Positions 37,505-37,609 of a DNA stretch of 39,423 nt are shown piece after piece. The stretch lies in assembly GCF_003334255.1 (NCBI RefSeq), contig NZ_QOWU01000054.1; one strand, 5' to 3'. Source of the stretch: Escherichia coli (GTDB taxonomy: Bacteria > Pseudomonadota > Gammaproteobacteria > Enterobacterales > Enterobacteriaceae). How positions within the stretch are numbered: the stretch's first letter is position 1; each line of letters starts with the position of its first letter. The notes beneath the pieces are model-generated. The model did no database searches and was not told the origin of the DNA. It worked only from the letters and a program-made list of their open reading frames with translations. Both the position numbers and the translations under genes were made by a program.

Positions 37505-37609
37505 GCCGGATGCGGCGTAAACGCCTTATCCGGCCTACATGATCGTGCAAATTCAATAAATTGCAGCGTTCTGTAGGCTGGATAAGATGCGTCAGCATCG
37601 CATCCGGCA
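37505..37609. repeat. Pair of inverted REP elements (BIME-like) between convergent aslB and aslA
   Basis: GCCGGATGCGGCGTAAACGCCTTATCCGGCCTACA and TGTAGGCTGGATAAGATGCGTCAGCATCGCATCCGGCA in opposite orientation. Confidence 0.6.

Follow-up and report, generated by a model that had tools for sequence, protein, structure and literature searches.

Do the imperfect palindromes that lie where three pairs of converging genes meet in this stretch of the Escherichia coli chromosome belong to the REP family, and, if so, do they amount to more than the ordinary repeats of this species? The window (the whole stretch of DNA analysed, 39,423 nt) aligns over positions 1-39346 to K-12 MG1655 (NC_000913.3, ~3,946,703-3,986,061) with 99.92% identity and without rearrangement. 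Its genes run in the order hdfR, maoP, yifB, ilvLXGMEDA, ilvY, ilvC, ppiC, rep and gpp, followed by rhlB, trxA, rho, the wec/rff cluster, thrP, four tRNAs, aslB and aslA. A preliminary description of this DNA had placed REP-like palindromes after ilvA, after rep and, as an inverted pair, between aslB and aslA. The three junctions are convergent, as it had stated (ilvA+/ilvY-, rep+/gpp-, aslB+/aslA-).

The window also departs from MG1655 at a few places that are worth recording in their own right. In ilvL (3621-3704) there is a 15-nt in-frame deletion, with its deletion point at 3648, which leaves a leader peptide of 27 residues (MTALLRVISLVVIIIPPCGAALGRGKA) against 32 and removes five of the regulatory Val/Ile/Ser attenuator codons; it may alter ilv attenuation. 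An undeleted ilvL is found in 5,425 of 5,426 complete E. coli genomes, the only same-length match being NZ_OW849064.1. Further, ilvG (3843-5489) is intact and encodes 548 residues, with an extra AT at 4819-4820 relative to MG1655, in which this gene is a well-known pseudogene carrying a 2-nt frameshift. Elsewhere in the window, only 14 substitutions separate it from MG1655. The source is therefore a K-12-like strain, but not K-12 MG1655. At its right edge, the IS1 that the region had been said to carry is present as sequence, but merely as the first 77 nt of the left end (39347-39423), the window stopping inside the element. It begins upstream of aslA, 54 nt from the start codon, and lies 1.7 kb from the aslB-aslA palindromes. 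Among complete RefSeq E. coli genomes, none carries an IS1 at precisely this site; in the nearest genomes an IS1 lies next to aslA, with a length differing by 10 nt.

At gathering thresholds, Rfam found no REP family in the window, its matches there being rRNA, tRNAs, an ilv leader-region family and the trxA thermometer, and a covariance model (R1) was therefore built for the purpose. R1 was trained on 27 distinct units, all from MG1655 and none from the region of the window; they came from six 50-kb pieces elsewhere on the chromosome (300 kb), in which units were picked by the published head and tail motifs. A strict head-gap-tail pattern gave 37 matches in these 300 kb against 0-3 in shuffles, and seeding with the tail followed by filtering on the head yielded 42 units, 27 of them distinct. 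When these 27 were aligned (A1), the consensus hairpin comprised 10 pairs, four with compensatory changes (y units, for instance, have G-C where z units have U-A). Run over both strands of the 39,423-nt window with every filter off, R1 returned exactly four units as significant matches:

10168-10198, plus strand: REP unit between ilvA and ilvY, z2-type; R1 30.4 bits, E 2.7e-7.
15985-16021, minus strand: REP unit between rep and gpp, z1 variant; R1 30.6 bits, E 2.4e-7.
37504-37538, plus strand: left REP unit between aslB and aslA, y type; R1 57.1 bits, E 1e-15.
37573-37609, minus strand: right REP unit between aslB and aslA, z1 variant; R1 48.2 bits, E 6.8e-13.

A fifth match, of 13 bits, is the 37504-37538 unit read on the opposite strand, and beyond these five no further REP unit was found on either strand of the window, the remaining R1 matches having E>0.9. 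The scan thus recovered just the sites of the preliminary description, offset by only 1-2 nt, and its list proved complete and free of false entries; the outcome that it had named as refuting, no match to REP models in a formal search, did not occur. All of the sites are base-for-base those of MG1655 (3956883-913, 3962700-736 and 3984219-324). The units are 31-37 nt long, and all four align to the consensus hairpin as imperfect palindromes. They are also all extragenic, lying between the stop codons of annotated converging genes, where REP sequence takes up 61% of the ilvA-ilvY spacer, 80% of the rep-gpp spacer and 67% of the aslB-aslA spacer. The foot tetranucleotide reads CTAC at 10195-10198 and 37535-37538 and GTAG at 37573-37576; it is absent from the rep-gpp unit. 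A strict regular expression missed the ilvA unit because its head carries a 1-nt indel, and it was tail seeding followed by the covariance model that recovered it.

Beyond the window, REP copies are dispersed, many per genome, in all of the 5,426 complete E. coli genomes that formed the population set, and the 158-nt aslB-aslA spacer used as a query meets a median of at least 31 similar places per genome across these 5,426. The R1 search, the genome-wide copy number and the identity to MG1655 together bear out the assignment to REP/BIME sequences, and it is close to certain that the four units are members of the E. coli REP (palindromic unit) family, present as two single units and one BIME-1. 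The y, z1 and z2 types used here go back to Higgins/Stern 1984, Gilson 1984 and Bachellier 1999, as set out in PMC3333891 and PMC12306157, and units of all three types have a conserved GTAG foot (Ton-Hoang et al., PMC3333891). The published REP coordinate and ChIP sources consulted (RepRanger supplements, Prieto et al., Kasho et al.) do not name these loci.

A core common to the rep-gpp and aslB-aslA copies had been proposed, and it is indeed there: the 24-mer GATGCGTCAGCATCGCATCCGGCA has exactly two copies in the window, one at 15998-16021 and one at 37586-37609, with 0 occurrences expected in 100 shuffles. The two units that bear it, the rep-gpp unit and the right aslB-aslA unit, are identical at 33 of 37 positions and are of the same subtype, with the inner stem GATGC/GCATC. 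That this subtype, which makes up two of the four units, was unseen in the 300 kb of MG1655 sampled would suit the idea that the units are chance palindromes or local gene-conversion copies, unrelated beyond the shared 24-mer. The idea is already refuted and can be given practically no credence, as the subtype recurs in other BIME-1 loci (for example, the yhaL-cyuA BIME-1 of another strain), the 24-mer is missing from the shuffles, the R1 E-values of the units range from 1e-15 to 3e-7, and the 37-nt right unit, queried alone, meets similar sequence at a median of 17 places per genome.

Alternatively, the hairpins could belong to no repeat family and serve the converging genes as Rho-independent terminators, since they are G+C-rich and stand right after stop codons at convergent junctions. 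However, none of them is followed by a T-run, and a scan finds no terminator-like site in the rep-gpp or aslB-aslA spacers, while near ilvA the sole plus-strand terminator-like site is a separate hairpin at 10252-10270. Moreover, near-identical copies stand by the dozens elsewhere in the genome, unlike terminators. It is thus very improbable that termination explains these hairpins, and membership of the REP family remains the preferred reading, under which each junction can be considered in turn.

Between ilvA and ilvY stands a single z2-type REP, TGCCTGATAGCGCTTCGCTTATCAGGCCTAC (10168..10198, plus strand), with a 1-nt insertion in its head and no partner unit, close to the z2 copies of MG1655 (TGCCTGATGCGCTACGCTTATCAGGCCTAC). 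It lies 7 nt past the ilvA stop and 13 nt short of the ilvY stop in a spacer of 51 nt, and its RNA hairpin (-15.7/-16.7 kcal/mol and z -2.2/-1.3 for the two strands) is only marginally more stable than shuffles. By alignment, a 59-nt segment bearing the unit (10160..10218) stands where E2348/69-like strains have a single A. In those strains the stop codons of ilvA and ilvY overlap (TTAA), and in the window the ilvA stop codon takes its final base from the segment, as ilvY does its last codons and its stop. With a 110-nt query centred on the segment and a coverage of at least 80%, the segment, a 58-nt indel, is present in 2888 of the 5426 genomes (53%), and the junction accordingly occurs in length classes of 363 and 421 nt. 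As a separate observation, the coding sequence of ilvY contains near its 3' end, at 10252-10270 on the plus strand, a hairpin that resembles a terminator and has a T-run (AGCGGCTCATGTAGCCGCT TTTTCT); lying downstream of the ilvA REP, it may be the real ilvGMEDA terminator.

The rep-gpp unit is likewise single, a z1-length variant (15985..16021, minus strand) of which the minus strand reads TGCCGGATGCGATGCTGACGCATCTTTTCCGGCCTTG. Its foot has decayed, with CTTG in place of CTAC (CAAG on the plus strand, 15985-15988), and this copy is a degenerate family member that has lost the GTAG/CTAC foot. It starts 1 nt after the rep stop and ends 8 nt before the gpp stop in a spacer of 46 nt, and its RNA folds into a hairpin of -21.6/-21.3 kcal/mol (z -5.7/-4.6). 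The unit is kept in 5418 of the 5426 genomes.

The aslB-aslA junction holds the inverted pair that had been claimed, with arms of 12 nt (37503-37514 and 37599-37610) that are 100% complementary and units that are each palindromic in themselves. The left one, TGCCGGATGCGGCGTAAACGCCTTATCCGGCCTAC (37504..37538, plus strand), is a y unit with seven identical copies in the sampled 300 kb of MG1655 and one mismatch to the published 34-nt consensus GCCGGATGCGGCGTGAACGCCTTATCCGGCCTAC (PMC12306157). The right one (37573..37609, minus strand; plus strand GTAGGCTGGATAAGATGCGTCAGCATCGCATCCGGCA) is an inverted z1 variant with the length and loop of z1 and a y-like CCGG. It is best seen as a y/z1 hybrid, since CCGG/CCAG takes the place of the canonical z1 CTGA/TCAG; its inner stem, too, has GATGC/GCATC where GACGC/GCGTC is usual, a change compensated on both sides. 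Together they form a single pair, a y unit and a z1-length unit in inverse orientation, with no tandem repeat. The pair ends 25 nt from the aslB stop and 27 nt from the aslA stop in a spacer of 158 nt, and its RNA as a whole forms one long hairpin (-71.6/-64.7 kcal/mol for the two strands, z about -8). In other strains a further hairpin, AAAAAGCGGCCATTTTGTGGCCGC, directly follows the aslB stop, and 9 nt of it (GAAATCGGCGGCCGC) are missing in the window and in K-12, the difference mapping to window positions 37479-37503.

Between the two CTAC/GTAG feet lies a linker of 34 nt (37539..37572), the L-type ATGATCGTGCAAATTCAATAAATTGCAGCGTTCT. Its 22-nt core GTGCAAATTCAATAAATTGCAG is identical in the phr-dtpD BIME of MG1655 and has similar counterparts, in reverse-complement form, in three further y/z2 pairs, and the linker can also be aligned to its equivalents in the BIMEs at yigE-uvrD, yhaL-cyuA and rcsB-rcsC. 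Within it, ATTCAATAAATTG (37551-37563) matches the IHF consensus WATCAANNNNTTR at 12 of 13 positions. The case for this putative IHF site rests on the conservation of the L motif, because matches with one mismatch are common (0.76 per kb in the window). As to its class, BIME-1 is described as a y and a z1 unit with a long L linker, often with an IHF site (Ton-Hoang et al., PMC3333891), and by its sequence the aslB-aslA element is a BIME-1, in which an L linker joins a y unit to a z1-variant unit of opposite orientation.

Across E. coli, the aslB-aslA junction exists in at least five alleles. The share of the first is a direct count, and those of the others are rough, being taken from evenly spaced rows of ranked genomes:

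Allele A, K-12/O157 type: 2248 of 5426 genomes (41%).
Allele B, the BIME of A inverted, with about 8 of 106 positions different and a different right flank: about 2-3%.
Allele C, only one hairpin, corresponding to A without the 78 nt that direct GATGCG repeats enclose: about 15%.
Allele D, only one y unit, inverted, corresponding to B without the sequence that direct GCCGGAT repeats enclose: about 10%.
Allele E, an aslA deletion of 1,579 nt (window 37575-39153): about 30%.

Allele B is exemplified by NZ_CM148325 (locus extract 806-930, corresponding to window 37495-37620), and allele E by the O111:H8 genome NZ_CP077545 (locus extract 2773-2924), in which a 138-nt remnant of the 5' end of aslA is left. 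Alleles C and D are thus single hairpins delimited by direct repeats of 6-7 nt internal to the units, and the left endpoint of allele E falls inside the GTAG foot of the inverted unit, 1-2 nt from the site CC|TAC that TnpA-REP uses in vitro. A literature search found nothing specific that described this aslA deletion allele earlier. In genomes without the K-12-type allele, the best matches to the spacer are BIME-1 paralogues at yigE-uvrD, yhaL-cyuA and rcsB-rcsC, all of which are convergent junctions as well.

Two of the three sites, ilvA-ilvY and aslB-aslA, therefore vary between strains, and the nature of the variants points to REP-associated rearrangement. The units had been put forward as potential recombination substrates, of which one part stands, namely the local polymorphism within junctions, and the other, exchange between sites, does not, gene order being collinear with MG1655. 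REP-by-REP recombination between the three sites was considered and rejected, the window being collinear with MG1655 over 39.3 kb. The two copies of the 24-mer are direct repeats 21.6 kb apart, and recombination between them would delete rho, which is essential in K-12.

For the origin of the local variants, two explanations come into question. REP units may be substrates of the REP-associated tyrosine transposase (RayT/TnpA-REP), and of slippage or illegitimate recombination, and such action on the units would account for the differences in presence/absence and orientation from strain to strain; the junction variants fit slippage or illegitimate recombination at REP sequences, or equally RayT activity. 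In its strongest form, the first explanation makes the aslB-aslA BIME-1 a currently mobile, REPIN-like doublet moved by RayT and not a static one, the inverted allele stemming from excision and re-insertion or from an independent insertion and not from inversion in place. The composite is found in both orientations at one junction, with about 8 of 106 positions different and unlike right flanks, and single-unit alleles exist. Moreover, in vitro TnpA-REP cuts at CC|TAC and brings about recombination of BIMEs (PMC3333891). On the other hand, the single-unit alleles are explained equally well by slippage between direct repeats of 6-7 nt (GATGCG and GCCGGAT), RayT-driven movement in vivo has not been shown for E. 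coli (PMC3333891), and the fixation of the rep-gpp unit in nearly all genomes suggests long-term immobility. Present mobility is accordingly possible, though on balance unlikely. The aslB-aslA BIME-1 might even be a hotspot at which REP/RayT-mediated rearrangement is active, with the aslA deletion among its products, but this is a doubtful proposition that we hold only tentatively. If true, with the cuts made by RayT, it would offer natural in vivo evidence of a domesticated transposase reshaping gene content.

With regard to function, REP hairpins are described as barriers to 3' exonucleases (PMC3333891; PMC12306157). By analogy, a unit that forms the 3' end of a transcript from either of the two converging genes would block 3'-to-5' exonucleases and so stabilise the upstream mRNA. 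A REP at most 15 nt from a stop codon is also reported, as quoted in PMC12306157, to stall terminating ribosomes and lower expression. With stop-to-unit gaps of 7, 1, 8 and 13 nt, ilvA, rep, gpp and, as a borderline case, ilvY lie inside this range, and the units near the ilvA, rep and gpp stops, and possibly that near ilvY, might act in this way. In the BIME-1, the L linker most likely binds IHF, as its relatives suggest, and would thereby bend the DNA. For these copies, both mRNA stabilisation and IHF binding, which the preliminary description had named, are roles that we infer from the family. Its further proposal that the units bind gyrase finds no support for these copies, gyrase binding and cleavage being documented for BIME-2 arrays (PMC6379681) and not for BIME-1 or single units.

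Overall, the REP/BIME features of the window are already known and ordinary, such sequences having been described since 1984. The hairpins account for the structure of three pairs of 3' UTRs, and their practical value is one of annotation. What is added beyond known repeats is only the variation between strains at two of the three sites, and in this respect the ilvA-ilvY and aslB-aslA junctions illustrate compactly, in natural strains, the indels, the inversion and the loss of a gene that can go with REP units.

Set beside the known systems, the window units resemble the E. coli REP/PU sequences in being imperfect palindromes of 31-37 nt with a GCC(G/T)GATG head and a TTATC(C/A)GGCCTAC tail, extragenic, multi-copy and the same as the MG1655 copies at those loci. 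Nothing essential separates them, the differences being the CTTG foot in place of CTAC in the rep-gpp copy and, in the two z1-length copies, the y-like CCGG and an A-T for a G-C pair in the inner stem, which is compensated. With BIME-2 they share the unit family, and y units like that at 37504-37538 are the preferred targets of gyrase cleavage within BIME-2 (PMC6379681). However, the tandem y/z2 array and the S linker are both absent from the window, which has one pair with an L linker, and the gyrase role is for this reason not transferable to its copies. Another contrast with the single BIME-1 is provided by the yjdN-yjdM array of MG1655 (4325800-4326386), in which 12 alternating y/z1-type units recur with a 100-nt periodicity. 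The REPIN/RAYT systems of Pseudomonas and the REPtrons also consist of inverted REP doublets with the GTAG foot as a conserved recognition feature, and a domesticated Y1 (HUH) transposase is presumed to mobilise these doublets (PMC2817692, PMC3333891). In the present case, rayT is outside the window; in MG1655 it lies at 247.6 kb (247637-248134), flanked by y and z1 units. It is with BIME-1 that the likeness is fullest in its details: a y and a z1-type unit in inverse orientation with their feet facing each other, a single-copy locus at converging 3' ends, and a conserved linker of 34-35 nt of the L type carrying what is here a predicted IHF-type site. This class of element is reportedly also known as RIP, a name ascribed to Oppenheim (1993), and as RIB, ascribed to Boccard & Prentki (1993), and the aslB-aslA example differs from it in that its z1 half is a y/z1 hybrid variant.
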